A stretch of 64,000 bases of DNA from an uncultured virus (IMG/VR IMGVR_UViG_3300010356_001334) (lineage: Duplodnaviria > Heunggongvirae > Uroviricota > Caudoviricetes), in IMG/VR virus record IMGVR_UViG_3300010356_001334; one strand, written 5' to 3'. Below the pieces are notes generated by a model, which made no database searches, was not told where the DNA came from, and saw only the letters and a list, made by a program, of their open reading frames with translations. The position numbers and the translations under genes are program-made. Positions 795-60,194 of this stretch are shown here, piece by piece. The first letter of the stretch is position 1, and the number at the start of each line of letters is the position of its first letter.

Positions 795-1133
795 ATGCAG
801 CTCACACCGAATATTCTAAAAACGTTGGTTGCCAGTATCTGTATCTTTACTGTATACATCTTGATCATGGTGACCATGTCAATTCGACAAAAGTACTTTC
901 CTGAATTTATCTTACAAACAATCCTTTACCTAAGTTATCTATCCATGAGTTTTATCATGGTAGCCAACATAGGAATCGTTTTAATTGTTGTTTATCACTG
1001 GTATCTCATAGTTCAAGGTAATGAATGGGAAAGTCAATTGATGATACCCGGTCTAATATCTGATATTGCGGTAATGATTATCTCTGTCGCATTGACTTTA
1101 TTAGCTTACGTTATTTTAAATGAAGGAGTCTGA
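795..1133 (+). CDS. Membrane protein (about 3 TM segments)
   Basis: Hydrophobic 112-aa ORF with AAGGA upstream. Confidence 0.6.
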   Translation: MQLTPNILKTLVASICIFTVYILIMVTMSIRQKYFPEFILQTILYLSYLSMSFIMVANIGIVLIVVYHWYLIVQGNEWESQLMIPGLISDIAVMIISVALTLLAYVILNEGV

Positions 1134-2496
1134 AATCATGGCTATTGCAAAATTAAAACCGGATGCCGAGATTAAACCTGTTTTAGAACTACCCCAAGTT
1201 CAAAAAGAAACGTATCAAGGTATTGTTGCGGATAACAATAACACCCCCCATGCGGCACTAGTAGCTTACATCGACGGGATGCCTTGGACTGTTGACTATT
1301 ATGGTCAACTCTTGGGTAAACATAATGACTTACGTGAAATTGACCCTGGTCAAAATGCGGCTTTTCAACAATACCAAAAAACAAAAGCTTTAGAGTTACG
1401 TGTTGCCAGTCCACTTCAGACAAGTTATGATAGTGAAAACGCGATCACGACGGTTTCAGGCAGTGCGCATATCGTTCACATTGTTCCCAATGTGAACGAT
1501 TACTTTATTGCAAATGCCGGATCTCGAGAAGCAGGTCTATTTCGAATTAAGTCTGTTGAACGAAAAGTCTTTAACCGAGATAGCGTTTATTTGATTGATT
1601 ATGATTTAGTCACCTACGCTAATGAAGACTCTGAAGTATGTCGAGATCTTGAATCAAAGGTCGTACGTGTCTATCGATTCAGTAAAGAGAGACTGACAGA
1701 AGGTCTATCTCCTGTCTTACGTGAAGAAATCTTTGCGCTCTCGACTGACATTGCAAAGTCGTATCACGATACGATTCAGCATTACTTCAAGAAGTTCTTT
1801 AATCGTACTCAGATGACTTTGGTTGTACCAGGGCAATCTAAATCAATCTATGATGCCTGGTTAGTATTATTCATTATTGCCATTGTCGATTCAAGGATTG
1901 CGCCAGAACTTCGGGATATGAAGGTAATCTCAACAGACCATGAGCGTTATTTGAACCAAGGTGCGCTCTGGCAGGTCTTATTGGATCGACAGTATGAAAA
2001 CCTTTCCTTAGTTCATCAGAAAGTTCAACTCGCACCTAAAACCCACTTTAACCGCTCTTCATGGTTAAAGGGTACTGCTTATTGGAACATGGACTACTAC
2101 GTCTATCCAGTCATTGAACATACTGAAACACATGTAAAGAATGATCCTGTTCCTCAAAACTATGGTTTTTCTTCCTTTGAAGGTCAGCCTGAGATGGAGA
2201 CTTTGAAATGGAAAGAACGTAATCTTTACACCGATGGGGTTTTGACAACACCGCTTATTAAGTCAGTCTTAGTCGATGATTACTACGTACTTTCAAAAGC
2301 TTTCTATGAAGGGGAGAGTAATATCAGTATTCTTGAAGTTTTAATTAAAGACTACTTGAAATATCAGACAATCGACTTAGTTCTGCTGGCAGCCTTAGTA
2401 AGAGAATATAAACAGTGGCCAGCTTTAGAGCAGTTCTACTATGGTCCTTTATTGATCCTTCTAATGAAAGATGCCGTTAAAGGGTTTTATCAGTAA
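1120..2496 (+). CDS. Putative virion structural protein of phiKZ-like phages (likely start ATG 1138)
   Basis: Long ORF, GGAG RBS before 1138, translationally coupled to the next genes. The YIDGMPWTVDYY motif recalls jumbo-phage structural proteins. Confidence 0.6.
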   Translation: MKESEIMAIAKLKPDAEIKPVLELPQVQKETYQGIVADNNNTPHAALVAYIDGMPWTVDYYGQLLGKHNDLREIDPGQNAAFQQYQKTKALELRVASPLQTSYDSENAITTVSGSAHIVHIVPNVNDYFIANAGSREAGLFRIKSVERKVFNRDSVYLIDYDLVTYANEDSEVCRDLESKVVRVYRFSKERLTEGLSPVLREEIFALSTDIAKSYHDTIQHYFKKFFNRTQMTLVVPGQSKSIYDAWLVLFIIAIVDSRIAPELRDMKVISTDHERYLNQGALWQVLLDRQYENLSLVHQKVQLAPKTHFNRSSWLKGTAYWNMDYYVYPVIEHTETHVKNDPVPQNYGFSSFEGQPEMETLKWKERNLYTDGVLTTPLIKSVLVDDYYVLSKAFYEGESNISILEVLIKDYLKYQTIDLVLLAALVREYKQWPALEQFYYGPLLILLMKDAVKGFYQ

Positions 2497-24171: not shown

Positions 24172-24624
24172 ATGTTAATTTTTACTTCAGGCAATATCTT
24201 TGAAGCGCAAGCCGATGCCTATGTTAATCCTGTCAATTGCATGGGAGTAATGGGTAAAGGCTTAGCGCTTGAGTTTAAAGAACGCTTTCCTCAAAATTAC
24301 ACAGCGTATAAATTTGATTGTCAAAGAAAGGAAGTCCGTGTTGGGGAAATGCATGTCTGCTTTATCCATGACCACGGCTATCCAAAATACATCATTAACT
24401 TTCCAACTAAGATCCATTGGAAAGATTCAAGTCAAATCAACTATATTCATGTTGGTCTTCAGTCATTGTTAAGATGTATTGAAGAGCTAAAACTAAACTC
24501 TATTGCGATTCCACGAATCGGATGCGGTCTAGGGGGTTTAGATTGGGTTTTAGTAAAAAAAGAAATACAAAAAGTATTAGGGAATGTCTCTAATACTAAA
24601 ATTTATGTCTATGAAGGGTTATAA
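24172..24624 (+). CDS. Macrodomain ADP-ribosylhydrolase (DarG/Poa1p-like)
   Basis: GNIF...VNPVNCMGVMGKGLA, INFPTK.HW and IAIPRIGCGLGGLDW motifs. Confidence 0.9.
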   Translation: MLIFTSGNIFEAQADAYVNPVNCMGVMGKGLALEFKERFPQNYTAYKFDCQRKEVRVGEMHVCFIHDHGYPKYIINFPTKIHWKDSSQINYIHVGLQSLLRCIEELKLNSIAIPRIGCGLGGLDWVLVKKEIQKVLGNVSNTKIYVYEGL

Positions 24625-26037: not shown

Positions 26038-27495
26038 ATGGAACGTCCCTCCCTTCGTCTTCCTCCTCCGGTTAAGTTTATGCTCAATACGGGCGCTTTG
26101 ATGGATATCCCAACTGCCCAGTATGTAAAGGGTACGCATGATCAACGTGTGCTCTTAGGAGGCATTGGAAACATTACGGGTATTGTGGGTCCCGGTAACT
26201 GTTTTAAAACCACGATCATGCGGTTTATGGAACTTTCAGCGGTGAGTCGTATCATCACGACCGTTCCAGATACCTATATCGGCACGTACGACACAGAAAT
26301 CAACACACACGAAGATCGGAACCTTAAACTGTCTCAAAGTTTTGAAGTTTTTAAAGACCGAGACATTTTAACGGAAGGGGTATGGCAGATTACGGATAAA
26401 TCTGTTTATCCCGGTAATGAATGGTTTGGTGCAGTTAAGAGTTATCTGAAAGATAAACGTGATGACAAGAAAGCATTAAAGTATGAGACGGCTTATCTAG
26501 ATCGCGATGGTGTCACTCCGATGAAAGTCATGACGCCTACGTTTAACGATATCGATTCCTTGTCACATTTCATCACAGCTGACGTTGAAAAGACAATGGA
26601 TACGACGGAACTGGGTGAGTCTGCGGGTAATACCATCTATATGCGTCAAGGTCTGGCTAAGTCTCGAATGCTCATGGAGATGCCGACACTTGCTGCAGCT
26701 AGCATGAACTACTTTCTTTTTACTGCTCATATCGGTAAAGAGATCGTCATGCCTTCGGGACCGGGCACGCCTCCGCCTCGTAAACAGCTTCAACATATGT
26801 CAAGTGGAGAGATCATCAAAGGGGTTACAAATAACTTCTTTTATCTTCTTCATAATTGCTGGTTGATTCATTCTGCACGCCCTTTTATTAATCAAGGCAC
26901 TAAAGCGCCTGAATACCCCTATCAACCAGGTGATGAAGTCGCTGGTGATCTCGATCTAAACATTGTAACGATGAAGCAGCTTCGGGGTAAAAATGGTTCT
27001 TCTGGGTTCTCGATTGAACTTCTAGTTTCTCAAAGTGAAGGGGTGCTGGCTTCTTTGTCGGAGTTTCATTATATCAAGAAGTCAAATCGATATGGATTAG
27101 AAGGCAATGATCGAAACTATAGTCTTGCACTTTATCCTGAAGTAGGTCTGTCTAGAACGACAGTAAGGCAGAAACTACGAGAAGATAAGAAACTGCAACG
27201 GGCTATGGAGATCACCAGTCAACTGTGTCAGCTTGAAGAGTTTCATCGTCATCTTAAAGATGAGCTTCTTTCTCCTGCTGAACTACGAAAAGCCATTGAA
27301 GAAAAAGGCTTTGACTGGAGTTGGTTGCTTGAGAATACACGTTCTTGGCACACCCTTAATGATGAACAACACCCTGGTTTCCCTTTGAGCACTTATGATC
27401 TGTGTCGTGTCGCCAAAGGTGAATATCATCCGTATTGGTTAGAAAAAGATAACAAAACCGTGAAGCCCGAATACCTTAAAAAGAAGGTTGTTTAA
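26038..27495 (+). CDS. uvsX: UvsX/RecA-like recombinase
   Basis: NTGALMDI, Walker A GPGNCFKT, YDTE and DIDSLS motifs; AGGAG RBS. Confidence 0.85.
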   Translation: MERPSLRLPPPVKFMLNTGALMDIPTAQYVKGTHDQRVLLGGIGNITGIVGPGNCFKTTIMRFMELSAVSRIITTVPDTYIGTYDTEINTHEDRNLKLSQSFEVFKDRDILTEGVWQITDKSVYPGNEWFGAVKSYLKDKRDDKKALKYETAYLDRDGVTPMKVMTPTFNDIDSLSHFITADVEKTMDTTELGESAGNTIYMRQGLAKSRMLMEMPTLAAASMNYFLFTAHIGKEIVMPSGPGTPPPRKQLQHMSSGEIIKGVTNNFFYLLHNCWLIHSARPFINQGTKAPEYPYQPGDEVAGDLDLNIVTMKQLRGKNGSSGFSIELLVSQSEGVLASLSEFHYIKKSNRYGLEGNDRNYSLALYPEVGLSRTTVRQKLREDKKLQRAMEITSQLCQLEEFHRHLKDELLSPAELRKAIEEKGFDWSWLLENTRSWHTLNDEQHPGFPLSTYDLCRVAKGEYHPYWLEKDNKTVKPEYLKKKVV

Positions 27496-44844: not shown

Positions 44845-44944
44845 TAACGTAAGTGACTACTTACAAAGTCCGGTCTTATCGAAATATAAGACTGATTCTT
44901 CTTGAATTGCTGGGAACTCCTGTTAGACAGAGACGCTAAAGCGG
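44845..44944 (+). ncRNA. Group I intron 1 (5' part; remainder in the N gap), inserted in the catalytic DFDGD motif
   Basis: Exon ends in U; candidate internal guide CAAAGTC (44864-70); P2 hairpin 44871-94; P element AATTGCTGGGAACTCC (44905-20). Confidence 0.8.
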
Positions 44945-45691
44945 NNNNNNNNNNNNNNNNNNNNNNNNNNNNNNNNNNNNNNNNNNNNNNNNNNNNNNNN
45001 NNNNNNNNNNNNNNNNNNNNNNNNNNNNNNNNNNNNNNNNNNNNNNNNNNNNNNNNNNNNNNNNNNNNNNNNNNNNNNNNNNNNNNNNNNNNNNNNNNNN
45101 NNNNNNNNNNNNNNNNNNNNNNNNNNNNNNNNNNNNNNNNNNNNNNNNNNNNNNNNNNNNNNNNNNNNNNNNNNNNNNNNNNNNNNNNNNNNNNNNNNNN
45201 NNNNNNNNNNNNNNNNNNNNNNNNNNNNNNNNNNNNNNNNNNNNNNNNNNNNNNNNNNNNNNNNNNNNNNNNNNNNNNNNNNNNNNNNNNNNNNNNNNNN
45301 NNNNNNNNNNNNNNNNNNNNNNNNNNNNNNNNNNNNNNNNNNNNNNNNNNNNNNNNNNNNNNNNNNNNNNNNNNNNNNNNNNNNNNNNNNNNNNNNNNNN
45401 NNNNNNNNNNNNNNNNNNNNNNNNNNNNNNNNNNNNNNNNNNNNNNNNNNNNNNNNNNNNNNNNNNNNNNNNNNNNNNNNNNNNNNNNNNNNNNNNNNNN
45501 NNNNNNNNNNNNNNNNNNNNNNNNNNNNNNNNNNNNNNNNNNNNNNNNNNNNNNNNNNNNNNNNNNNNNNNNNNNNNNNNNNNNNNNNNNNNNNNNNNNN
45601 NNNNNNNNNNNNNNNNNNNNNNNNNNNNNNNNNNNNNNNNNNNNNNNNNNNNNNNNNNNNNNNNNNNNNNNNNNNNNNNNNNNNNNNNNNN
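44945..45691. other. Assembly gap (747 N)
   Basis: Run of N; should contain the intron 1 3' part, the beta' C-terminal exon and the beta start. Confidence 0.99.
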
Positions 45692-47259
45692 GAGAACATC
45701 GTCAAACGTGGATCTTTGAACCTGAAGCTTATAAGCTTAATCAAAACCCTGAAACACTGATCGTCATTAACTATGGATACTTAGACGTTGTTCATAAGTA
45801 CATCCCGACGATGATGGCGAACTATCATCGCTGGCTGAACCGCCAGAATACCGTTTGGGCTAATGTTAATAAGATCGCTTCTAGTAGTGAACGCCATCAG
45901 TTCATCTTTTATCCGATTGCTAAGGTCTTGCAAGGTCGAACGATTCTAGAGAAGTATGCTAAAGAGTCGCCTTCGATTAAGATGATGCAGATCTTTGGTA
46001 GTCATGGTGATGGTGGGTATCTTCAGCTGGATATGTGGAAATGGCTTAATCCCGCAACGCGTAAGCAAAGTCTCTTAGGTCAGATTGATCCACGTCACTA
46101 TAACAAGATCAATCTTGTCTTTCAAGGTACTTCAGGTAACCAAGCACTCGTTAATTTAGGTTATTTGAATAGCTGGATCAAGGGTCAGCCTAATACAACA
46201 GAGTTTGGTTCAATTGTTCAGTTTGAACCGCTCTTTATTCAAAAGCTCTTCTTGAAAATGTCGATGTCGCTCAATGCGATTGAGACGAATGAAGAGAATA
46301 TGGAAGGACTTGATGAGATTGAGAATTCAACAACTCCATCTCAAATTGCTCCTATTCCTAAGACCTTAACAGAGCCTTCTAGTCAAGATATTGAAGAGGG
46401 TGAAGTTAGCGACACTGAACTCGATAAAACTTCAACGATCTCTGAAGATGACGTTGAAGAAAAAGAAGATAGTAGAATTGAATCAGGTTTTGTTCAGAAA
46501 GCAAAGGTCCTTCCTAAGAAAGGACCTCTTGAAAAAGAACCTGAGTCTGATACTGAGATTGCGCTTGCTTCTTTTACTTCATCATTCATGGACGAAGTTG
46601 AAAAGGACATTGAAGCGCTTGATAAGCTTAGCCTTACTCAACTTAAGAATAAAGGTACAAAGCTCAATGCTGAAGATCCTCTCATTGAGGAAGAACTGAT
46701 TGACCTTGATCAAGTTCGTGCTAAGGTCTATCAATCCAAGCCACCTTCAGATCGACTTAAAGACTGGATCTCTGAAGACGCTGAAGCAAACTTGATTACG
46801 GCTTCTGAATATCGAAAGCTTGAACAGTCTATTGAAAGCTATAAAGAAAGTAAAGATCCTTACGGTTCAAACGCACCACGTATTGAAGCCATGGTGATCA
46901 AAGAGGAAGATGTTGTTCTTTCCCCTGAGAAAACAAAGATTGAACTCAGTGATACTGTTCCTGATGTCACCATGGGGAACTCTACCCTTAAAGCGTTTGA
47001 TACGCAATATCTTCGTAATGTCTATAAGAAAGACATCTTGCAAGCAATTGACAGTGTTCAAAATGCTGGCGTCGTCATTAAGAACCACGAAATCGAAGTG
47101 CGTCATAGTGCGCTTGGGTCGTATGAACATCATCGACTTGAATTGAAGCCTGTAGATGGGATGCCTTCTACGATTCAGTTTACCCTGCCCCAAGTCAATG
47201 AAGATGGGACATTCACGGCTAGCGGAAACCTTTATTTATTAAGAAAGCAAAGGGTGGAT
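45692..47259 (+). CDS. rpoB: Virion RNA polymerase beta subunit (phiKZ gp178-like), exon 1 (start in the gap)
   Basis: Open frame ending ...EDGTFTASGNLYLLRKQRVD, which matches the beta GTFIING.ERV..SQ region. Confidence 0.85.
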
Positions 47260-47747
47260 TAAAAGTCTTGCTTATAGTTTAGTTTTTAATATCACTATAA
47301 GTAAATGAACAGATAGCGTTCTTTTAGTTTATTTAAAGAGCACTGTTTGTTCCGAGGTCCACAGTAGCGTAGAAATATGCTACAAGAAAAACCTACCTAA
47401 CTGCGGGAAAACGTCTATAATCTTAGTTTTTACCACTTGCACATGGAAACGTAGTGTAATACTCGTAGGGTAATGATCCAATCGAGCATGGTCAAAACAA
47501 AACTAAGAGACGCAACCGACGCAACGAAGCTCCTAAGTGGAAACATATGGAGTGTGTTCAGAGGCCATCGAAAGCTATTGCGTAGTTCAGCATAATAACA
47601 TCCGTATAAAACCGGGTGGTCGTCTTGAAAAAGGCGATTAAAGCGAGTAGAGTAGGGAAGAGAGTATATATCAAACTCTCTTCCCGAAACGGTAGGCATC
47701 TTAACGTGTAATGACGAAGATGAAGATATGGTCCATTTGTTGGAATG
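47260..47747 (+). ncRNA. Group I intron 2 (488 nt, no ORF)
   Basis: U|...G boundaries; guide GTCCAC (47357-62) pairs with exon GTGGAU; P AACTGCGGGAAA; P3 CCTACC/GGTAGG; P7 GGCCA/TGGTC; S AAGATATGGTC. Splicing restores QRVD-LPIRK. Confidence 0.9.
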
Positions 47748-49169
47748 CTGCCAATACGAAAGATTTCGCCACAGATTGTATCGCTCTCTACCTATTATGG
47801 TAAGACATTCGTACAGACCAGTAGTAAGGTTGTTAATAATGACCTAGCCTGGCTATATCGAGAGATCAACGCAGCTTCCCTGCAACAAGGTCTCTTGATC
47901 CATGAAGTCAACCCTGGCAATGTCTTTGACCATGACTTTAAGGGTCCTTATATCTACAACGCCCTTGCTCAAGAATACGAGCAGTTTAAAGTAGGGGACT
48001 ATAGTCTTTACTTTGATCATCGTGTTCGAGATAAACGAGTTAATCCTGAACTCTTGAAGATTATTGAGAAGAAAGGACGTGTTTGGTGTGGGTGGTCAAA
48101 AGACAAGAGTCCCATTGTTGTCGACAAGGACAATATCTTCTACGAAGTCAGAAGAGATGGTGAAACCCGTCTCGGAAACATCTATGAGTTTTTAGAACTC
48201 GATACAGCTAAGTGCCCTATTAACTTTGCTGAAACACGTGTCTTCTCAAAGTACATCCCTGTTGGTGTGATGCTTTCATACTACCTAGGTTTTAGTGCTT
48301 TGATTGCACTTCTAGGGGAACAGTATCGGGTTGTTCCTGCAAAGAAGAATAAACAGCTTGAAAAAGACGAGTACGCTATTAGCTTCAGAGATGAAAGCTA
48401 TATCTTTAAAACAAAGAATAAAGCCAATACACTTATTTTGGCAGGCTTTCAAGACTTTGAAAAAGTCACTAAACTCTACGATCGAAAAGACTTTGAACAT
48501 AAAGATGTCTATTTAAATCTTCTACTGGCTAAGAAGATGAGTGCGATCTATGTCCGTGAACTGGATATGATGGAACACGCTTTCATTGACCCTATCAGTA
48601 AAGAAGTCTTGCAAGATATGGGAGAACCCACGACCTTTATTGCATTGGTGATTCGTGCGGTCGAGATGTTGATGAGTTATGATCATCCCGCTTCTCAAGA
48701 TCGTGCAGCGATGCGAGATCGTGGTTATGAACGTTTTGCTGGCACAGTCTACAAAGAAACTATGCAGGCTATCCGTCAATTCAGGAACAAGAACCTTGTT
48801 GGTCGTTCTAAGATTGACATGAGTCCGTATCAGATCTGGAATGCGATTATGAAGGATAGTGCATTGAAGATCGTCGAAGATACGAACCCGATCCAGAACT
48901 TGAAAGAATCTGAAGTCATTACCTTTGCTGGAACAGGAGGTCGTGATAAAGATACGATTACGAAACCTGCACGTGCCTATCACAAGAACGACTTAGGGGT
49001 GTTGTCTGAGTCGACAGTCGATAGCACCGCTGTGGGTACGATTGCATATTTGAGTGCAGATCCAAATATTAAAAACGTTCGAGGATTGATGAGAGACCAA
49101 AAGAGTCTTTCACCGACGAATATCCTATCGACGAGTGCATTGCTTTCACCAGCATCGATGAACGACAAT
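47748..49169 (+). CDS. rpoB: Virion RNA polymerase beta subunit, exon 2
   Basis: TNPIQNLKE, GGR...RAYHKNDLGVLSESTVDSTAVG (beta H..HYGR.CP.ETPEG-like region). Confidence 0.88.
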
Positions 49170-49543
49170 TAACGTTTATTCTGTTTAGAATAGACAGTGG
49201 TTCTCACTATCGGAAACGGTAGTGTAGTATTCTCTCTAACTGCTGGAAACTCCTAAAGCTGTCTCACCACAAGCATCGCGAAAGCAGATGCTGAAGGTCT
49301 AAAAACGAGACAGATGCGGCATATGCCAAAATGGACAATCAGCAGCCAAGTCCCTAAGGTCATTGACTATGGGAAAGGTTCAACGACCAAGACCTTGTCA
49401 GTCTGTACACTCAAGTGAGTGGAAATGGGAGACACCTTAACACGTCATGGTGAAGGTGAAGATATGGTCTGCTCTTTCAGGGAAAGCCTGAAGCTGCGCG
49501 TGATGGCGCGGGAGGAAGGGTAACGTCTTCCTCTGAACTACGG
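49170..49543 (+). ncRNA. Group I intron 3 (374 nt, no ORF)
   Basis: U|...G boundaries; P AACTGCTGGAAA; Q AATCAGCAGCC; R GGTTCAACGACCA; S AAGATATGGTC; P3 TCTCTC/GGGAGA. Splicing restores MNDN-PKRVMF. Confidence 0.9.
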
Positions 49544-50671
49544 CCTAAAAGAGTAATGTTCATCACTACGCAACACTCGCACACGATCGCATCACCCGGT
49601 TATCGACAGCCATATCTTCGTACTGGGTATGAGTTTGTTATTGGAAAGAGAACGTCTAAACTTTTCTCGACAGCAGCTGAAGAAGATGGGGTTGTTGAGA
49701 GTGTAAATCAAAAAGGGATTATTGTCGCTTATGATTCTGGTTTAAAGATTGGGATTCAGTTGGGTCGACTCTATGGGAAAGCAGAAGGAACCTATTACCC
49801 TCATGATGTCGTGACGCCTTATAAAGAAGGTGAACGCTTTAAGAAAGGTGATATCCTAGCTTATAACACGAAGTTCTTTGAACCTGACTTCATTGATCCT
49901 AAGCAGATTATCCTGAAAGTCAATAATGCCATCAATACGGCGTTCATGGAATGCAGTCAGACTCACGAAGACTCGTGTTCTATTAGTGCTAAGATCAGTG
50001 ATAAGTTTAAAACTGAAGTCACTAAGGTTAAGTCTTATATTGTTCGATTTAATCAAAACCTACTTGAAGTTCAAAAGCCGGGTAGCACAGTTGAACCTAA
50101 AGATGTTTTGATGATTATTGAAGATGAGATTACTTCGTCCCATACGCAGTTTAGTGAAGACGCGCTATCAACATTGAAACGTTTGTCTAACGTAGCGCCT
50201 CGAGCAGGTGTTATGGGGACGGTTGAGAAGATTGAAATCTTCTACCATGGTGATAAACGCGATATGTCTTTGAGCTTAAAGAAGCTTGCAGATAAGAGCG
50301 ATGCTGACATGGCTCAGAGTGCCAAGGCCTCTAATCGTCCTGTCATCTCAGGTCGTGTTACAGATGAGTATCGTGTTGAAGGTACGCCACTTGAGCTGGA
50401 TCACGCTGAAGTCAGAATCTATATCACGGTTGTAGCTGGAACAGGTGTTGGTGATAAGGCTGTCTTTGGACACCAAATGAAGAGCACGGTATCTGAAGTT
50501 CAAAAGTATGAGATGCATACTGAAGAAGGTGAGGAGATCGATGCGACTTTTGGCTATCGCTCTGTCGCTAACCGAGGCGTAATGTCACCTTCTATTATTG
50601 GAACAACGATTACGTTGCTTGATAAAGTTGGAAAGATGGCAGTCGATATTTACGAAGGTAAGAAGTCTTAA
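49544..50671 (+). CDS. rpoB: Virion RNA polymerase beta subunit, exon 3
   Basis: PKRVMFITTQ, PYLRTGYE, THEDS and GVGDKAVFGHQMKS (beta GDK...HGNKG motif). Confidence 0.88.
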   Translation, partial: PKRVMFITTQHSHTIASPGYRQPYLRTGYEFVIGKRTSKLFSTAAEEDGVVESVNQKGIIVAYDSGLKIGIQLGRLYGKAEGTYYPHDVVTPYKEGERFKKGDILAYNTKFFEPDFIDPKQIILKVNNAINTAFMECSQTHEDSCSISAKISDKFKTEVTKVKSYIVRFNQNLLEVQKPGSTVEPKDVLMIIEDEITSSHTQFSEDALSTLKRLSNVAPRAGVMGTVEKIEIFYHGDKRDMSLSLKKLADKSDADMAQSAKASNRPVISGRVTDEYRVEGTPLELDHAEVRIYITVVAGTGVGDKAVFGHQMKSTVSEVQKYEMHTEEGEEIDATFGYRSVANRGVMSPSIIGTTITLLDKVGKMAVDIYEGKKS

Positions 50672-53307: not shown

Positions 53308-54096
53308 ATGTCAAAAGTCTTCTTCTCGGCAACCAAGTTGCCCATGTTAAAAAAGAAAGGGATCATTAAGCCTGATGCCGATGGTTACTATGAATTGGTT
53401 GTTGGGGGTTTAAATACTCACAATAATACCGGTGCGTGGTATTACACCATCGAAGGCGTTCGTGAGCTCTTTGGCCCTGGTAGTCTTTTACATCGCCGGA
53501 TCGCAAACGGTTGTCTGCGTGCTGAAGTGAATCATCCGAAGAAACGTCCTGGCGAAACCGATGAACGTTTCTTTGAACGCATGCTCGACATCGATCGAGA
53601 TAACGTATGTGCTCACTTCAAAGACCTTTGGCTTGATGAGAACTTTGGACGGAATCATCCAGAGTACAATAACCCGCATCTTGTTGCAATGATGGCAAAG
53701 GTAAAGCCTTCAGAGCCCAAAGGTAATATCCTGAAAGAATCTCTTGAGAACCCCAATGAGAACGTTTGCTTTAGCATTCGTGCTTTAGCAGATGAAGGCT
53801 TTTATCAAGGTAAGCGTATTCGGGTCCTTAAAGAAATTATTGCCATTGACCTTGTTAACGAGGGAGGTTTGCTTATTGCCTCCAAGTGGGACAGTCCTGC
53901 CACTGAAAGTATCGGTAACATTACTGAAGACGATTCTTGTGCAGGTGAAGCTATGCGGATTACTCAATCCATGCTGACACGTATTGCAAACGATACTCGT
54001 GTCGGAATGGCAACTGAGTCTTCTCGTGATGCAGTTGAGTTCCTTTCTCAGAAACACTTTAAAACGGCTTCTAAGCCGATCTATGCTAAGTGGTAA
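53308..54096 (+). CDS. Prohead maturation protease (phiKZ gp175-like)
   Basis: GYYELVVGGLN, EVNHP, CFSIR and D.VNE motifs; C-terminal A-T-E candidate autocleavage sites. Confidence 0.8.
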   Translation: MSKVFFSATKLPMLKKKGIIKPDADGYYELVVGGLNTHNNTGAWYYTIEGVRELFGPGSLLHRRIANGCLRAEVNHPKKRPGETDERFFERMLDIDRDNVCAHFKDLWLDENFGRNHPEYNNPHLVAMMAKVKPSEPKGNILKESLENPNENVCFSIRALADEGFYQGKRIRVLKEIIAIDLVNEGGLLIASKWDSPATESIGNITEDDSCAGEAMRITQSMLTRIANDTRVGMATESSRDAVEFLSQKHFKTASKPIYAKW

Positions 54097-54101
54097 GTCC
54101 T

Positions 54102-54135
54102 ACACAGGAAGAGGCTTTACGGCCTCTTCCTGTGT
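54102..54135. terminator. Palindromic terminator
   Basis: ACACAGGAAGAGGC/GCCTCTTCCTGTGT. Confidence 0.8.
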
Positions 54136-54158
54136 GTTCTAATGTCTTCTGAGATCTA

Positions 54159-54184
54159 TTTTAGCAATATAGATCTTAACTGAA
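54159..54184 (+). promoter_or_regulatory. Candidate phage promoter motif TTTTAGCAATATAGATCTTAACTGAA
   Basis: Recurrent motif lying between a terminator and the SLT gene. Confidence 0.5.
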
Positions 54185-54309
54185 CCTGTTTCTGTGGTTT
54201 TTGTTGCACGCTCTTTAAATAGTTTGAGCATTTTCCTTTAACCCCTTTTTCTTTAAAAAGGAGCAGTATCGATCTACGGATCACGCACGACCTTAAAAAG
54301 GAGTTCCTC

Positions 54310-54633
54310 ATGGCACGTTGTTCTATTCGTTTTATTCTAAGTTGTTTTCTGGCTCTTACTACTTTTCATGCATATAGTGCAAGTAAAGTAGAAGCATTAG
54401 AGAAATACATTTCGAGTGCTTGCAAGACGTCTTGTGTCGATCCAAGTCTTTTGTTGCTATCTGTCAACAAGGCATCAGAAGAACTAGATGTAAACCCTGT
54501 GACGCTTTTGGCAATTATAGAAGTCGAGTCGTCCTTCAAGCATAGAGCGCTAAATAAAACCAATGGAAGGAGTGTGGGTTTATCTCAGATCCAAGTAAGA
54601 TGGCATCGAGATAAATTCACAACAACAAACTAC
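54310..54633 (+). pseudogene. Lytic transglycosylase (SLT) gene, N-terminal part, interrupted by a tnpB element
   Basis: Signal-like N-terminus, AIIEVESSF and GLSQI motifs; the frame then runs into the IS left end. Confidence 0.8.
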
Positions 54634-56091
54634 CTCCGAGAGCGTAAAGCTCTGTCCTTCAGGGCGGAGATGTAAGCGAAGTTGTATTGTATAAAACCTA
54701 TATAACCTCTCTAATGAAAGGAGTAGTGTATGACAGAAACATCTAAGCTCCTGAAGAAGGGGTTTAAGTTTCCTATCTATCCGACTGCTGAGCAACAGGA
54801 ACTCATCGAGCGCACTTTCGGCTGCTGTCGTTATGTCTATAACCGCGCTTTGGCCGAGTCTAAAGAAGACTATAAGACTTATGCTGAGTTGTTAGAAAAA
54901 CGACTCATGGATAAACAAGCACGACCCGATGTTTCAAGCTATGGGTTGGTTAATAAGTTGCCACGCTTTAAACGCGATCCAGATAGCACTTGGCTAAGTG
55001 ACGTTTCAGCTGTCGCGCTCCAGCAGAGCCTGCTTCATCTTGGTGCCGCCTATGCACGCTTTTTCAGAACCAAGCAAGGTTTCCCCAGGTTTAAGTGCAA
55101 GCAAGGTCGACAAAGCTTCTCACTGACAAAAGCTGCCTTTAATCTTCAAGAAAGTGGTCTTTGTATTGCTAAATGCATTACACCCATTAAGGTTGTGTAT
55201 AGCCGACCTCTCCCGTCAACACCGTCGAGTTTGACAATTAGTCGTACACCTTCAGGTAAGTACTATGTCTCTTTCATTTGTGAGTACCAACCAACACCAA
55301 CCTCTGGCACACAGGTTACTGGGATCGATGTCGGCCTTAGTCATCTCTTAGTGCTTTCCAACGGCATCAAAGTCGATAACCCACGTCACTATGTAAAAGC
55401 ACAACAGCGTCTCAAGCGTGCCCAGCAAGCCCTCTCTCGTAAACAAAAAGGATCCCGTAATCGCCATAAACAACGTCACAAGGTAGCCAAACTTCACGAA
55501 CATGTCGCTAACTGCCGACGTGATCATCACCATCAGCTCTCTCGAAAGCTCGTCAACGAAAACCAAGTGATCGGTATCGAGGGACTTCAGGTGAAAAACA
55601 TGATCAAGAATCGTCGACTCTCAAAGCACATCACAGATGCAGGTTGGAGAAGCTTCCGAAGCATGCTGGAGTATAAAACAGTCGAAAGCCAGCACACCAC
55701 ACTTGTCGTGATGGACACCTTCTTCCCGAGCAGTCATCTCTGTGCAGCCACAGGCCAAAAGCTTGATCGTAAGCTTCTACTTAGCGAGCGTAGCTGGGAT
55801 TGTCCACACTGCGGCCAGCTTCATGATCGTGATGTGAATGCAGCTCAAGTTATCGCAACTGAAGCACTTTTTGCAGTGAGTCAATACCCTATCGATGTTG
55901 TGCGTGGAAAGATCCTGCTGGCTAATGCACGATCTGCTTAGGGAGAAGGATTTGTCAATAATCAACACCGCGATGACACGCGGTGTCAGCCCATGGAGCG
56001 CTCTTGTGCAGTCAGACATCGCGATGAAGTGGGAAGGGGACTCCGTGAGGACCCTAGGAATCCCTGTCCTTTAGGGCAGGGAGGATGTCAA
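54634..56091 (+). mobile_element. IS200/IS605-family tnpB-only element (left boundary about 54631-54634)
   Basis: Left hairpin AAAG-CTCTGTCC-TTCA-GGGCGGAG; right hairpin GAAT-CCCTGTCC-TTTA-GGGCAGGG ending TCAA; no tnpA. Confidence 0.85.
54730..55941 (+). CDS. tnpB: RNA-guided endonuclease TnpB (element 1)
   Basis: HTH IYPT..Q..FGCCRYVYN; RuvC GIDVG, IEGL and DRDVNAA; C-terminal CPHC. Confidence 0.93.
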   Translation: MTETSKLLKKGFKFPIYPTAEQQELIERTFGCCRYVYNRALAESKEDYKTYAELLEKRLMDKQARPDVSSYGLVNKLPRFKRDPDSTWLSDVSAVALQQSLLHLGAAYARFFRTKQGFPRFKCKQGRQSFSLTKAAFNLQESGLCIAKCITPIKVVYSRPLPSTPSSLTISRTPSGKYYVSFICEYQPTPTSGTQVTGIDVGLSHLLVLSNGIKVDNPRHYVKAQQRLKRAQQALSRKQKGSRNRHKQRHKVAKLHEHVANCRRDHHHQLSRKLVNENQVIGIEGLQVKNMIKNRRLSKHITDAGWRSFRSMLEYKTVESQHTTLVVMDTFFPSSHLCAATGQKLDRKLLLSERSWDCPHCGQLHDRDVNAAQVIATEALFAVSQYPIDVVRGKILLANARSA

Positions 56092-56111
56092 GTTCCTAAA
56101 GTCTTAAAAGC
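55942..56111 (+). ncRNA. Predicted omegaRNA of TnpB 1 (guide GTTCCTAAAGTCTTAAAAGC from 56092)
   Basis: Structured region from the tnpB stop to the right end TCAA; the guide is the 3' flank, as established for TnpB. Confidence 0.65.
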
Positions 56112-56145
56112 GCACAGTCGTATCGCGAACTTGAAACTTCATTAA
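56092..56145 (+). pseudogene. C-terminal remnant of the SLT gene (VPKVLKAHSRIANLKLH*)
   Basis: Y-V-x-K-V is the typical SLT C-terminal helix; in frame with the N-terminal part; followed by a hairpin. Confidence 0.7.
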
Positions 56146-56155
56146 ATGTATTTTA

Positions 56156-56183
56156 AGGTCTAGAGGCTAAAGCCTCTAGACCT
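56156..56183. terminator. Palindromic terminator
   Basis: AGGTCTAGAGGC/GCCTCTAGACCT. Confidence 0.8.
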
Positions 56184-56200
56184 ATGTCTGTTTAAAAAGT

Positions 56201-56225
56201 TTTTTAGTCATATATATCTTACATG
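56201..56225 (+). promoter_or_regulatory. Candidate phage promoter motif upstream of tnpB 2
   Basis: TTTTTAGTCATATATATCTTACATG, similar to the motifs at 29771 and 54159. Confidence 0.5.
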
Positions 56226-56257
56226 CCATTCTTACAGAAACTAAAACCGGAGAAACT

Positions 56258-57460
56258 ATGACTCAAAATCAAAAGCCTCTGGTCAAAGGCTTTAAGTGCC
56301 GTATTTATCCAACAAAAGAACAAAAAGACTATCTTCAAAAAGTCTTTGGTTCTGCTCGGTTTATCTATAACCATCTTTTAGCTGAATTAAAAGATGAATA
56401 TGAAAACTATAAAAAAGACCAAAGCATTCAAAGAACACCAATAAATAAAATATCATTAGCCTATAAACTGCCTTCTTTAAAACAAAAAGAAGAATATCAA
56501 TGGTTAAACGATGCCCCTGCACAAGTTCTTCAACACGCCAGTGGTCAACTTGCAGAAGCCTTTTTAAGATTCTTTAAATCAAAGATTGGATATCCTAGAT
56601 TTAAATCTAAACACGGTCGACAATCTGTAACGTTTAGTAATCAAATCTATTCAATCGATGGCAATAGACTCAAGCTACTAAAATGCAAATCTTTGTTTAA
56701 AGTTAAGCTTCATCGAGCATTACCGTCATCTGGTTTAAAATCATGCACAGTCAGTAAAACTCCAAGTGGAAAGTATTATGCTTCGTTTTTATGTGAGTAT
56801 ATTCCAGAGAAAACATCAGGAACTGGTTTTCTTGGCATTGACGCAGGCATTACTGACTTAGCAACACTTTCAAACGGACTTATTCTTCTAAACCCAAAGC
56901 ACTATGTTAAACAACAATACAGACTAGCGCAACTTTCAAGACGCCTAACTCGTAAACAAAAAGGATCAAAAAATCGAAATAAAGCTCGACTTAAAGTTGC
57001 TAGACTTCATGATCACATAGCTAATCAGCGCTGTGATTACATGCATAAGTTCACGACAAGCGTCATACGCGAAAACCAAGCTGTCGCCATCGAGAACTTG
57101 CAAATTAGAAACATGATCAAAAACAGACGACTCTCTAAACATATTGCTGACGCAGCATGGGGTGAGATGAGACAGCAATTGGCTTATAAAGCTATTGCTA
57201 GTCAAAACTGTCTTCTTGTTATTGCTGATCCGTATTATCCGAGTACTCAACTTTGCCATAGATGTAACACAAAACCAAGTCAGAAAATTAAACTCGGCGT
57301 GACAAAGTGGGTATGTGAATACTGCGGAGAAAAACATCAGCGTGATCATAATGCTTCTTTGAATCTTGAAGTCCTGGCAAGATCTTACTATTATCAGCAA
57401 AAGAGAAATGGAGAAATTGCTAGTATTATTTTAGCCAAACCTTATTCTCCGTTAATTTAG
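56258..57460 (+). CDS. tnpB: RNA-guided endonuclease TnpB (element 2; no IS left-end hairpin seen)
   Basis: RIYPT..Q..FGSARFIYN; RuvC GIDAG, IENL and QRDHNAS; zinc finger CHRC...CEYC; GGAG RBS. Confidence 0.93.
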   Translation: MTQNQKPLVKGFKCRIYPTKEQKDYLQKVFGSARFIYNHLLAELKDEYENYKKDQSIQRTPINKISLAYKLPSLKQKEEYQWLNDAPAQVLQHASGQLAEAFLRFFKSKIGYPRFKSKHGRQSVTFSNQIYSIDGNRLKLLKCKSLFKVKLHRALPSSGLKSCTVSKTPSGKYYASFLCEYIPEKTSGTGFLGIDAGITDLATLSNGLILLNPKHYVKQQYRLAQLSRRLTRKQKGSKNRNKARLKVARLHDHIANQRCDYMHKFTTSVIRENQAVAIENLQIRNMIKNRRLSKHIADAAWGEMRQQLAYKAIASQNCLLVIADPYYPSTQLCHRCNTKPSQKIKLGVTKWVCEYCGEKHQRDHNASLNLEVLARSYYYQQKRNGEIASIILAKPYSPLI

Positions 57461-57473
57461 TTAAGATCTTTAG

Positions 57474-57590
57474 TCAAACTACCGTAGGGTATACGGGAAG
57501 TCAAGCCTGTGGAGAAGATCGTGAAGTAGGCGACTCGATGAAGCAGGAAGATCTGAAGTCTGGACCATACCACATCTTAACTGAATGATA
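57474..57590 (+). ncRNA. Predicted omegaRNA copy 1 (scaffold 57474-57573; guide ATCTTAACTGAATGAT...)
   Basis: TACCGTAGGG..CGGGAAGTCAAGCCTGTGGAG...GATGAAGCAGGAA is typical of tnpB 3' RNA; the terminal CCAC can pair with GTGG (pseudoknot). Confidence 0.75.
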
Positions 57591-57631
57591 CGCTAGTATC
57601 AATTTTAACAAAGCCCTGAAAGGAGAAAATC

Positions 57632-57835
57632 ATGGCTGCTATTCTTATTGTCATCGGATACTTCGCAGTTATCCTGAGTATTACGATGCTGTCGATGAAA
57701 CTGGTCAGGACAAAAATCATTCGAACTTTGTTCATTGGACTGGGTTTGCTCCCAAGTATTCAACTCATTATTCTTGGGGTCTTACTGGTTGAACTATATG
57801 GACAACGCGCTCTTAAAGGAGTTCATCATGAATAA
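57632..57835 (+). CDS. Small membrane protein
   Basis: AAGGAG RBS, two TM segments. Confidence 0.65.
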   Translation: MAAILIVIGYFAVILSITMLSMKLVRTKIIRTLFIGLGLLPSIQLIILGVLLVELYGQRALKGVHHE

Positions 57836-57944
57836 GGTTAAAGCTCTTTGCAAGAATGGCAATGGTCTTGTTCGGTCGGTCCTTCTGATCACCGCTGGTG
57901 TCAGTGTCTGGATGTGGCAAATTGCCACCATCCTTGACAAATAA
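57828..57944 (+). CDS. Small membrane peptide (38 aa)
   Basis: AAGGAG RBS before ATG 57828. Confidence 0.5.
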   Translation: MNKVKALCKNGNGLVRSVLLITAGVSVWMWQIATILDK

Positions 57945-57961
57945 AAAATCATCAAATGTCA

Positions 57962-57996
57962 GGAGAGGTTTTAAACCTCTCCAGCTTTTTCTTTTT
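57962..57996 (+). terminator. Intrinsic terminator
   Basis: GGAGAGGTTT/AAACCTCTCC followed by a T-run. Confidence 0.7.
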
Positions 57997-58009
57997 GAGG
58001 ATTTAATAA

Positions 58010-58186
58010 ATGCCTTCAAAATCAGAGAAACAAAAGAAGTTCATGGCGGCAATTTGCCACGATGAAGAGTTTGCTAAAAAGAACCACATTGATCAAGAAG
58101 TCGCGTGTGAGTTCTTTGAGGCAGACAAACAAGAAGAAAAGAAGAAACAAGAAAGTGTTGTTGAGAAGTGGTCTAAGAAGTCTTAA
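58010..58186 (+). CDS. Small phage protein MPSKSEKQKKFMAA... (58 aa; absent from the ORF track)
   Basis: GAGG RBS; resembles a widespread small phage family MPSxSxKQxxFMAA. Confidence 0.65.
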   Translation: MPSKSEKQKKFMAAICHDEEFAKKNHIDQEVACEFFEADKQEEKKKQESVVEKWSKKS

Positions 58187-58227
58187 AACGCGTTCTGTGC
58201 CATTTTAATTGATCTAAGGGGTCTGTC

Positions 58228-58638
58228 ATGCTCAAAGAGCTTAATAACGCCATTGGTGGCGCCTATGTGGCTTCTCATTGTGTTTCTCGTCGTGTTGATC
58301 TAGCTGGGATTCGATATGTCTCAGCATCTGATCAAGTTTGGCCTTTTAATCCCAAACTCTATGTAGAACCGATTGAAGTCGACAGTATCATCTACACAGG
58401 AGTCTACACTCTCCTTAAAGAAGATGTCGTTGATGAAGATCAATATAAACTTTCAAACTCTGAAGGTCAATATCATCTTGGAACAAAACTGGTGATGTTG
58501 AAAAACGATCTTCATCTTCAGATTTTTGATGGTGAAGATGCTTGGCACGAATTCATTCCGAAAGGAAGTCAGGTTGCTAAAGTGCTTCGAAATGGTCGAG
58601 TATATTGGGCAGTGATCTATGCTCAAATCATCCATTAA
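58228..58638 (+). CDS. Hypothetical protein
   Basis: AAGGGG RBS, 136 aa. Confidence 0.6.
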   Translation: MLKELNNAIGGAYVASHCVSRRVDLAGIRYVSASDQVWPFNPKLYVEPIEVDSIIYTGVYTLLKEDVVDEDQYKLSNSEGQYHLGTKLVMLKNDLHLQIFDGEDAWHEFIPKGSQVAKVLRNGRVYWAVIYAQIIH

Positions 58639-58709
58639 GAGACCCTGCTCTTAGAAAAAAGATAACAGTGTACATCTCTAGTGAGGAAAGCAAGTTATAC
58701 TAGCAATTC

Positions 58710-58826
58710 TCAAACTACCGTAGGGTATACGGGAAGTCAAGCCTGTGGAGAAAATCGTGAAGTAGGCGACTCGATGAAGCAGGAAGATCTGAAGTTTAGA
58801 TCATGCCACATCTCTATTGAACGATG
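58710..58826 (+). ncRNA. Stand-alone omegaRNA copy 2 (scaffold 58710-58809; guide ATCTCTATTGAACGAT...)
   Basis: 95 of 100 nt identical to 57474-57573; no adjacent tnpB. Confidence 0.75.
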
Positions 58827-58955
58827 CTACCACACATCGCTTCAGTTCTTTCTTAAAGAGTGGCTTGAGCTCAACACTTTTTAATGGAAGATTTTCTTAA
58901 CGCAAGTAGTTTCCTGTGGCAATCTGCCATAATACCATAAATGAAGGAGTAATCT

Positions 58956-59408
58956 ATGTCCCGCGCAAAACGTGATGAGAATCTGGTCAACGCCATCGCT
59001 TCGTCGCTGTCCAAGGTAACCGATGGTGTGATCTCGTCGGACGGTGATGTCTTTAACAGCAATCTGCCGGAAGGTCTGACTCCGGAAACGGTTGAAGCAG
59101 TTTCCAACTATACCACGGCTTTCGTTGCCAGTGGTCTGGAAGCGGTTGGTAAGGCCGCAGTGTCTGCCATGGAAAAAGACAAGAAGCTGAATAATGTTTC
59201 GGCTGAAATTCCCATGGGCGCTTTCGGTAGCGTCGGTTACGGTGTAACCCGTAGTCGTGAAGCTGTGGTTCCGGGTACGGACAAGACCACAACGGTCTAT
59301 GGCGGCACCAAGGCAAATGTGGCTTTTGTGGCTGGCAAGAACGCTGGTCAACTGGCTGCTGCTAAGCGCTCTATCAAAGAGATGGCTGAAGAAGCACTGA
59401 AGAAGTAA
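58956..59408 (+). CDS. Conserved, probably highly expressed jumbo-phage protein
   Basis: GAAGGAG RBS and host-like codon bias. Confidence 0.7.
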   Translation: MSRAKRDENLVNAIASSLSKVTDGVISSDGDVFNSNLPEGLTPETVEAVSNYTTAFVASGLEAVGKAAVSAMEKDKKLNNVSAEIPMGAFGSVGYGVTRSREAVVPGTDKTTTVYGGTKANVAFVAGKNAGQLAAAKRSIKEMAEEALKK

Positions 59409-59422
59409 TCTGTTCTGATGAC

Positions 59423-59456
59423 ATAGAGGGAGAGGGCCTAGGCCCTCTCCCTCTGT
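59423..59456. terminator. Bidirectional terminator
   Basis: AGAGGGAGAGGGC/GCCCTCTCCCTCT followed by a T-run. Confidence 0.8.
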
Positions 59457-59471
59457 ATCAGTATTTTTTTT

Positions 59472-60194
59472 TTACCATCGAGCATAAATAGATTTATTTT
59501 CAACTGAAAGGTTTGCAGTTACCAATAGTTTTTCTTTTAAGAAATCTGACTTTGAAATCTCTTTAATTGTAGTTGTTTTATATGTATTCCATGTTGAGTT
59601 ACGATTATAATCAAACGTAATCTCATAATAGCCTGGATTTAAAACATTAACAGAATCAAAGTGAAATCTTTTCTTAATTTCAACTTTGATTGTTATAACG
59701 TATTTTGGTTCTTGATTAATTTGAGGTAATGCTTTTAACTCAGATACATAGAGCTTACCAATTTGCTCTGGGATATATGTTCTGGTGTTTTCATTGTATG
59801 TAACTAGCCAGTGTTCATTACTAGCACGCACATCATAGACTAATCGAGCATTTGGTTTTAATGCATATTCAAAAGAAATTGCATTAATATAAAGTCCACC
59901 TTTCCATCCTTCATTCTTTCCTTGATATCCAGCATCTAAGACATCATAAGGAAGAACAGCATAACCAATGATTGCTCCATATAGGCATGTTGAAGCTGTA
60001 ATCCGTGGTGTTGTTCGGTCTTCCATATTTGCTTGCCTAAATCCAATACGCGGAATATAGACATTAGGACGATCTTTCGTAATATGGATAAGGAAGGGAT
60101 CGGGAAGCTGGTTGGCTGTTACGATGGTGATATTTTTCTGAACTTTATCAGGAAGGCGTTTGATAAAAAATTCAAGTTCTTGAAGAGAAGACAT
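59472..60194 (-). CDS. Putative internal head protein (AT-rich)
   Basis: EDRTTPRI and EHWLV motifs; C-terminal SVE...IYARW tail. Confidence 0.55.
   Translation of the reverse strand: MSSLQELEFFIKRLPDKVQKNITIVTANQLPDPFLIHITKDRPNVYIPRIGFRQANMEDRTTPRITASTCLYGAIIGYAVLPYDVLDAGYQGKNEGWKGGLYINAISFEYALKPNARLVYDVRASNEHWLVTYNENTRTYIPEQIGKLYVSELKALPQINQEPKYVITIKVEIKKRFHFDSVNVLNPGYYEITFDYNRNSTWNTYKTTTIKEISKSDFLKEKLLVTANLSVENKSIYARW

Follow-up and report, generated by a model that had tools for sequence, protein, structure and literature searches.

TnpB and a separate 136-bp guide RNA unit of a jumbo phage as probable RNA-guided homing elements

An uncultured virus (IMG/VR record IMGVR_UViG_3300010356_001334) carries, in the 64-kb stretch of its DNA that was analysed here (the window), a gene for a TnpB-type RNA-guided nuclease, tnpB-2, with a 100-nt guide RNA scaffold just behind it, and further downstream a second copy of this scaffold that is accompanied by no nuclease gene. 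This arrangement raises the question of what one nuclease gene and two guide-bearing scaffolds do for a phage, or for themselves. The source of the window is a phiKZ-like jumbo phage, as indicated by genes for the beta subunits of RNA polymerase, which are split, and for a tail sheath, a head maturation protease and numerous virion proteins. A sequence-only reading of this DNA had proposed a domesticated system, in which one nuclease is served by two guides aimed at promoter elements. Of this proposal, the single nuclease with two guides and the link to an intergenic motif stand, but a domesticated, promoter-regulating system is not supported. The locus is probably made up of two selfish RNA-guided homing units, a TnpB element (unit 1) and an omegaRNA-only passenger (unit 2), which resembles the palindrome-associated transposable elements (PATEs) and would use TnpB in trans.

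The TnpB-2 protein contains the Pfam domains HTH_OrfB_IS605, OrfB_IS605 and Cas12f1-like_TNB, all of them over the cut-offs (E values of 1e-17, 5e-30 and 2e-15, respectively). Its similarity to ISDra2 TnpB (chain 8h1j_A) reaches an E value of 2.5e-67 in phmmer, and the residues of its RuvC triad align with the GVDVG, GTEHL and DRDENA motifs of this solved protein, which we take to contain the catalytic residues of ISDra2 TnpB. D195, E279 and D363, as well as C333, C336, C353 and C356, are invariant in an alignment of 24 relatives. The three RuvC acidic residues that the sequence-only reading had noticed are therefore all kept in the intact open reading frame (ORF), which encodes 400 aa, and the loss of RuvC catalytic residues that marks proteins of the TldR type is not observed. 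These results place TnpB-2 among the OrfB_IS605 RNA-guided nucleases and suggest that it is active and would cleave DNA. At the protein level, relatives with 95%, 86% and 67% identity are found, and a search of genome contigs with a profile of 24 TnpB sequences gives relatives of 36-44% identity among the matches listed. Among deposited phages, megablast with the region 54000-60000 gives no match, and tblastn with TnpB-2 gives 423 records, all with less than 60% identity, which would indicate only that tnpB is common in phages.

The viral contigs were scanned with peptide words of TnpB-2, which gave no relative, and with a 136-aa neighbour gene, which gave a single match. This match, a 73-kb contig with an estimated completeness of 27% (L001, the sister contig), is collinear with the window at 91-94% identity. 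The sister contig aligns with the window at 91-94% on both sides of unit 1, and lacks 56222-57573 of the window, with an overlap of 6 nt at the joint. Its empty site reads CATATAT up to the insertion point and ATCTTAACTGAACGATACGC behind it. Contigs of four public sequencing runs (X2, X4, X19 and X21) were also placed on 55900-59000. The filled and empty alleles come from sludge and wastewater runs of different studies, of which X4 is a DNA run and X19 is an RNA library. One 2139-nt contig of X4 joins 56218 to 57577 and 58671 to 58808, indicating that both insertion sites are empty in this DNA. Further, more diverged empty sites for unit 1 are present in X2 and X21, and the locus L003 also has the empty allele.

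Filled and empty alleles of unit 1 thus occur in related phages (empty in L001, L003, X2, X4 and X21), and the target of the guide is the empty allele. Guide 1 matches the empty site of the sister contig with 1 mismatch in 16. Elsewhere in the window, neither guide has a site with fewer than 3-4 mismatches in 16, and the sites on the plus strand all have at least 4. The tnpB-2 element is not confined to one site. A copy with approximately 96% identity (54-55 differences over 56210-57560) is present in a different context in X4, X21 and X19. The flank of this third site, which begins with ATCTACTTTGAG or (AT)CTAACTTGAG, is again of the ATCT-N4-TGA type and has no match in the window.

Copy 2 of the scaffold belongs to an insertion of its own. 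Because the contigs of X4 and X21 both join 58671 to 58808, copy 2 is the right part of a precise 136-bp insertion, the mini-element, which is present in the window and the sister contig and absent from the contigs of these two runs. The mini-element is identical at 134 of 136 positions between the window and the sister contig; identity falls to 73-74% in the intergenic DNA next to it and to 87-93% in the nearby genes, so that the mini-element is conserved far above its surroundings (binomial P of 2e-5). This conservation would reflect either a recent move between lineages or strong constraint. The sequence-only reading had allowed for copy 2 to be only a decayed remnant of an insertion sequence (IS). 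The finding of a discrete 136-bp unit argues against this, because a decayed remnant is not expected to be identical at 134 of 136 positions amid flanks of 73-93% identity. The only match of guide 2 in the DNA compared is its own flank, and the empty allele of unit 2 is seen as the joints of the X4 and X21 contigs only.

The two scaffold copies differ at 5 of 100 positions (57517, 57560, 57562, 57565 and 57569), and in a repeat search the similarity extends to 116 nt at 92% identity. Both copies end with CCAC, and the flanks that follow begin with ATCTTAACTGAA in copy 1 and with ATCTCTATTGAA in copy 2. The recurrence of the scaffold without tnpB, as first noticed by the sequence-only reading, is thus correct in its position, in the number of differences and in the CCAC ends. 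The sequence of one related IS is common to six loci up to GGTAGTTCAC and then continues into four different flanks. ISGst2 has TTCAC as its transposon-encoded motif (TEM), according to the available part of Meers et al. (bioRxiv 10.1101/2023.03.14.532601). Because the relatives share their sequence up to TTCAC, the right end of the units is taken to stop at CCAC, and the guide to start with ATCT. A 3' end of the scaffold at CAC agrees with the insertion boundary at 57573/57574, as judged from the alignment with the sister contig. With the right end at CCAC, the two flanks represent two guides that one nuclease could use.

With the three scaffold copies as queries, nhmmer gives matches immediately 3' of distant tnpB genes. 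A covariance model of the scaffold, which was built from seven sequences, gives 24 matches in 83 sources, namely two in the window, one in the sister contig and 21 in 80 genome loci. The matches in the genome loci have E values of 0.0005 or less in 10 cases and are weak (E values of 0.05-0.9) in the other 11. Nearly all of them (19 of 21) start within about 120 nt after a tnpB match on the same strand, the exceptions being those in L064 and L008. In L064, a Microseira genome, a 75-bit scaffold match (1123-1275, minus strand) is located upstream of tnpB in the opposite orientation, and may be a solo right end or part of a neighbouring element. The model detects no third copy in the 64-kb window. 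In metagenomes, a 21-mer of the scaffold core is present in 29 stretches, two of which are the window's own sequence. A TnpB match (29-40% identity) is found in 13 of the other 27 stretches, and is located directly upstream of the core in 11 of these 13. Two metagenome loci, L098 (core at 4001) and L112 (core at 3261), have only an 81-aa tnpB fragment, 240 nt upstream; these would be omegaRNA cores that have outlived their nuclease gene.

The alignment fitted to the model contains two conserved helices, a hairpin with the stem CCGUA/UACGG and a helix CCUGU/GCAGG, in which 98.7% of the cells are paired. In this alignment, 9 of the 10 pairs change on both sides, none of 500 shuffles reaches the covariation score, and slid registers score far below it. 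This strong covariation identifies the repeated module as the omegaRNA core that is conserved in the clade of TnpB-2. The proposal of the sequence-only reading that this omegaRNA ends at CCAC agrees with the insertion boundary and with the TTCAC ends of the relatives. Single-sequence folds of the two scaffolds are no better than those of shuffled sequences (z of +0.37 and -0.98), and the structure is therefore derived from covariation only. A possible partner of CCAC, or of UUCAC in the relatives, is an internal GUGG(A). A GTGG/CCAC pseudoknot receives no compensatory support from the relatives, since relatives with a changed internal motif keep TTCAC. In ISDra2, the partner of the pseudoknot is at -103 to -105, and a 116-nt scaffold is sufficient, the 5' part inside the gene being dispensable (available part of Nakagawa et al.). 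By analogy, a stand-alone core of 100 nt is plausible as a working RNA. The Rfam family RAGATH-18 gives 27 bits with both scaffolds, which is below its gathering score of 44.9, and was not used. In the RNA library X19, one contig spans 58725-58951, which alone is no proof of transcription. The X19 contigs do not cover 57460-57563 or 58604-58707, and those bearing an adapter begin at 57598 and 58725, where the ends of the RNA are not readable from contigs.

Both units are inserted in an intergenic motif. Instances of this motif are located between genes on the plus strand at about 29771, 54159, 56209 (split by unit 1) and 58662, and all three insertion sites, including that of the 96% identical element, are at the same point of the motif, between an upstream half ending with TATAT or TGTAC and a downstream half of the form ATCT-N4-TGA. 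The earlier observations that both flanks fit ATCT-N4-TGA and that intergenic copies of the motif exist elsewhere in the window are therefore correct. When a 19-letter version of the motif is searched for with up to three mismatches, two matches are found where 0.33 would be expected by chance; two matches are also reached in 5 of 100 shuffles. A strong terminator-like hairpin of 12 pairs (56156-56183) is located just upstream of the motif at 56209. The motif would be a promoter. A scan for promoters of the sigma-70 type gives nothing at the motif, a result of little weight in a phage that encodes RNA polymerases of its own. The last five bases of the upstream half, TATAT, are presumed to be the transposon-adjacent motif (TAM) of the tnpB-2 element, by analogy with the pair of TAM and TEM in ISGst elements. 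The features of the locus are summarized in Table 1.

Table 1. Positions of the two units, their parts and their guides in the window
Feature	Position	Strand	Remarks
Unoccupied motif copy	54173..54184	+	Perfect match to guide 1 bases 1-12; preceded by TATAG, not TATAT
Upstream half of intergenic motif (CATATAT)	56209..56215	+	Insertion boundary against sister contig
tnpB-2 element (unit 1)	56216..57573	+	1358 bp, taking the right end at CCAC; from blastn against sister contig L001 and X4 contig joint; boundary ambiguous by 6 nt (ATCTTA)
Left end of unit 1	56216..56257	+	42 nt; no hairpin; starts ATCTTAC, mimicking the start of the 3' flank
tnpB-2	56258..57460	+	400 aa; intact RuvC triad D195, E279, D363; CxxC...CxxC zinc finger
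omegaRNA scaffold core, copy 1	57474..57573	+	Right end spans 57461-57573; terminal hairpin degraded
Guide 1	57574..57593	+	Flank of unit 1 right end
Mini-element (unit 2)	58674..58809	+	136 bp, 36-nt left part and scaffold; no ORF of its own; boundary ambiguous by 9 nt (ACATCTCTA)
omegaRNA scaffold core, copy 2	58710..58809	+	Terminal hairpin GAUCU/AGAUC intact
Guide 2	58810..58829	+	Flank of mini-element

Homing is preferred to domestication, because the units are polymorphic and the guides point at the uninterrupted allele. In the homing scheme, TnpB-2 would be expressed from behind the rebuilt motif and the ribosome-binding site (GGAG) ahead of its ATG, and would load the omegaRNA of either unit, so that unit 2 borrows TnpB in trans. 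Because each unit sits between the halves of the motif, its guide would read the downstream half and the unique sequence that follows. In a mixed infection, the guide-loaded TnpB would cut the uninterrupted site of a relative that does not have the insertion, and recombinational repair off the element-bearing genome would copy the unit into this site. The process would be transposon non-restorative homing with marker exclusion, by which the units would spread between co-infecting phages. The window encodes a macro-domain protein (24172-24624), an SbcC-like protein (16524-19016) and a UvsX-like recombinase (26038-27495), the last of which is relevant because homing would need recombination-dependent repair.

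Several observations weigh against this scheme. Four of the five differences between the scaffold copies degrade the terminal hairpin of copy 1, which could weaken this omegaRNA of the window. The left ends of the two units have only ATCT..TA in common, and the mini-element is therefore not a simple internal deletion of unit 1. Within its 73 kb, the sister contig contains one scaffold copy, that of its mini-element, and no homologue of tnpB-2; the only match there is a copy of tnpB-1, a second tnpB gene described below, which is 47% identical to TnpB-2, and a trans-acting TnpB is therefore not evident in this contig as far as it extends. The strong conservation of the mini-element would fit purifying selection for a function beneficial to the host as well. 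Each unit starts with a repeat of the beginning of its own 3' flank, ATCTTA in unit 1 and ACATCTCTA or more (9-11 bases) in unit 2, and such a repeat is predicted neither by peel-and-paste transposition nor by simple homing. Gain and loss are not distinguishable from presence and absence.

The alternative that accounts best for the data after homing is that the units are ordinary non-autonomous IS200/IS605 elements, a tnpB-only IS and a PATE, which are moved by the TnpA of the host or of another element by peel-and-paste into a TAM, TnpB serving restorative homing only and the phage being merely a further place of insertion. The boundaries are sharp as this alternative predicts, the TATAT or TGTAC before the left end and the (A/G)CCAC at the right end parallel the ISGst elements with their TEM TTCAC, and the tnpB-2 element occurs at more than one site. 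The lack of a nearby tnpA is itself not unusual, since about three quarters of tnpB genes are reported without one (available part of Meers et al., bioRxiv 10.1101/2023.03.14.532601). Nevertheless this alternative is unlikely, because the ends are not those of such elements. The left ends contain no subterminal hairpin, as the sequence-only reading had stated, and their DNA folds are no better than those of shuffled sequences (z of -0.11 and -0.29). The right ends give a z of +1.26 for copy 1, the hairpin of which is degraded, and of -0.81 for copy 2, and subterminal palindromes of the IS200/IS605 type for a Y1 TnpA are found in neither unit. No transposase match, and thus no tnpA, is found among 60 further ORFs of the window (25 compared with PHROGs only and 35 with Pfam only, the scan being set outside nested ORFs and the ORF 44902-47262, which contains the run of N). 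In addition, all three insertion sites carry the extended ATCT-N4-TGA context beyond a 5-nt TAM. TAM-like pentamers, TATAT and TGTAC, do precede the units, though each unit begins by repeating 6 or 9-11 bases of its flank, which is not produced by peel-and-paste.

A domesticated, immobile TnpB with two guides, which regulates the phage's own promoters or serves as a standing weapon against related jumbo phages, is improbable. In its favour, the nuclease is intact, the units have no transposase-type ends, and the mini-element is conserved far above the background. Promoter-repressing TnpB derivatives of phages, TldR, do exist (available part of PMC13565253). Bases 1-12 of guide 1 also match perfectly the unoccupied motif copy at 54173, beside a near-TAM, with mismatches at positions 13-16. 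In ISDra2 TnpB, cleavage is abolished when double mismatches fall within positions 1-12, and is reduced but still possible when they fall within positions 13-16 (available part of Nakagawa et al.). This 12-nt match is the one point that would keep the regulation idea alive. In contrast, both units are missing from close relatives at collinear loci and are hence not fixed, and the match of guide 1 over its full length is to the empty allele, which is the configuration of a selfish element; domestication is therefore not supported. Moreover, only two scaffolds are present in the 64 kb of the window and one in the 73 kb of the sister contig, the catalytic triad is kept, unlike in TldR, and the motif is too rare in the window to be a general promoter code.

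Copy 2 might instead be a relic without present activity, left by an earlier insertion of the tnpB-2 type that lost its gene. In favour of this, the mini-element has neither an ORF nor an adjoining tnpB, its left part shows no relation to that of unit 1, and cores do occur beside decayed tnpB fragments in L098 and L112. A relic is nevertheless very improbable, given the contrast between the near-identity of the mini-element and the divergence of its surroundings, its precise absence from two further runs and the intactness of both conserved helices and the terminal hairpin.

Homing may be combined with the repeats at the left ends in a bolder, and rather doubtful, reading, in which the units are homing elements that split a promoter and rebuild it. 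The right ends (CATACCAC and CATGCCAC) may mimic the upstream half of the motif, and the left ends (ATCTTAC and ATCTCTAGTGA) the downstream half, so that insertion would leave a working motif both before the cargo and before the displaced gene. Because the first 12 bases of each guide are the shared half of the motif, TnpB could also nick or cleave the motif at its other copies and so start ectopic homing into new promoters. Each new site would supply a new guide, and this process could have generated the mini-element, the site in the window and the third site. In that case selection would maintain the mini-element, which would serve as a second weapon in competition between phages.

Homing by TnpB has been shown on chromosomes and plasmids, and a search of the literature found no published report of it in co-infecting phages. 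Phage homing by TnpB is treated as a theoretical case in the available part of the review PMC13565253, and all comparisons below likewise refer to the available parts of the cited sources. The closest known elements are the tnpB-only IS200/IS605 elements (IS1341-type) such as ISGst2 of Geobacillus stearothermophilus, the right end of which overlaps its omegaRNA (Meers et al., bioRxiv 10.1101/2023.03.14.532601). Unit 1 shares with ISGst2 the three Pfam domains, the intact RuvC triad and a structured RNA 3' of the gene, in which CAC abuts the guide; in both systems, the guide is the flank, the target is the empty site and the motif of the right end resembles TTCAC. Unlike ISGst2, the locus has a 42-nt left end without a hairpin, has no tnpA that could be found, resides in a jumbo phage of the lytic type, and contains insertions in one extended motif with left ends that repeat the start of the flank. 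PATEs carry omegaRNAs and would depend on a TnpB supplied in trans (Meers et al., bioRxiv 10.1101/2023.03.14.532601). The mini-element is similar to PATEs in that it is a miniature that contains no gene and combines a right-end scaffold with a guide of its own beside a full element encoding the nuclease. It keeps the right end and forms a precise insertion or deletion in two runs. It differs from PATEs in that it is without evident palindromic ends, its left part is unrelated to the full element, and it is 98.5% conserved across phages.

The spread of IS605 in plasmid populations is reported to depend on TnpB and not on TnpA (PMC13565253, PMC11870625). The locus resembles this spread, or transposon non-restorative homing (PMC13565253), because homologous replicons have filled and empty alleles, of which the empty one is addressed by the guide; it is different because the replicons would be co-infecting phages. 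The free-standing homing endonucleases Seg and Mob of T-even phages (PMC13565253) are also encoded by intergenic genes that are present in one phage and absent from another, and marker exclusion is expected for them as for the units. Unlike in Seg and Mob, the target would be recognized by a guide RNA, and another 136-bp unit, located apart, can provide a second guide. TldR (PMC13565253) is likewise a TnpB relative encoded by phages, next to a guide RNA that targets a promoter region. TnpB-2 keeps D195, E279 and D363, unlike TldR, and the units are mobile insertions and not fixed regulators. The locus is a natural test bed for these ideas, with an active-looking TnpB, a separate guide-only mini-element and both alleles in sequenced communities. 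If the units spread by homing, RNA-guided nucleases would join the protein homing endonucleases that drive marker exclusion in jumbo phages, and an RNA gene of only 136 bp would be carried along by a nuclease from another locus. The 100-nt scaffold common to two guides would offer a ready-made design for multiplexed TnpB targeting.

Another tnpB gene, tnpB-1 (54730-55941, 403 aa), which the sequence-only reading does not mention, is located directly upstream of unit 1. Its product has 46% identity to TnpB-2 and carries CAATG in place of the first CxxC in the zinc finger. The tnpB-1 element (54703-56091) has a sharp right end at 56091, where its sequence stops with GGATGTCAA, and its guide matches the empty site of the sister contig, behind ACCTAT, with 2 mismatches in 16. 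By this comparison, the tnpB-1 element has the same configuration as unit 1. A 98% identical copy of this element is present at another locus of the sister contig (L002), and a variant of the intergenic motif precedes this copy. An HgcC-like RNA behind tnpB-1 (55972-56104) scores 30 bits, which is below the gathering score. The gene preceding the tnpB-1 element encodes a protein with an SLT-transglycosylase domain (54310-54675), which has 121 aa in the window and 168 aa in the sister contig. Approximately 120 nt of this gene are replaced by 60 unrelated nt (54634-54693), which are followed by the tnpB-1 element. These 60 nt resemble, as the reverse complement, the far end of the locus L002.

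A run of 747 N (44945-45691) inside a 786-aa ORF (44902-47262) is the source of a dip of the GC content to 0.13. An island near 7-10 kb (6773-9388) has a GC content of 0.57-0.58, against about 0.40 for the genome, includes an 871-aa ORF without a Pfam or PHROG match, and may be foreign DNA. Two consecutive ORFs (47745-49172 and 49556-50671) encode pieces of a beta-type subunit of RNA polymerase, and each of these pieces is preceded by a 48-nt repeat (47686-47733 and 49422-49469), the two copies of which are 79% identical.

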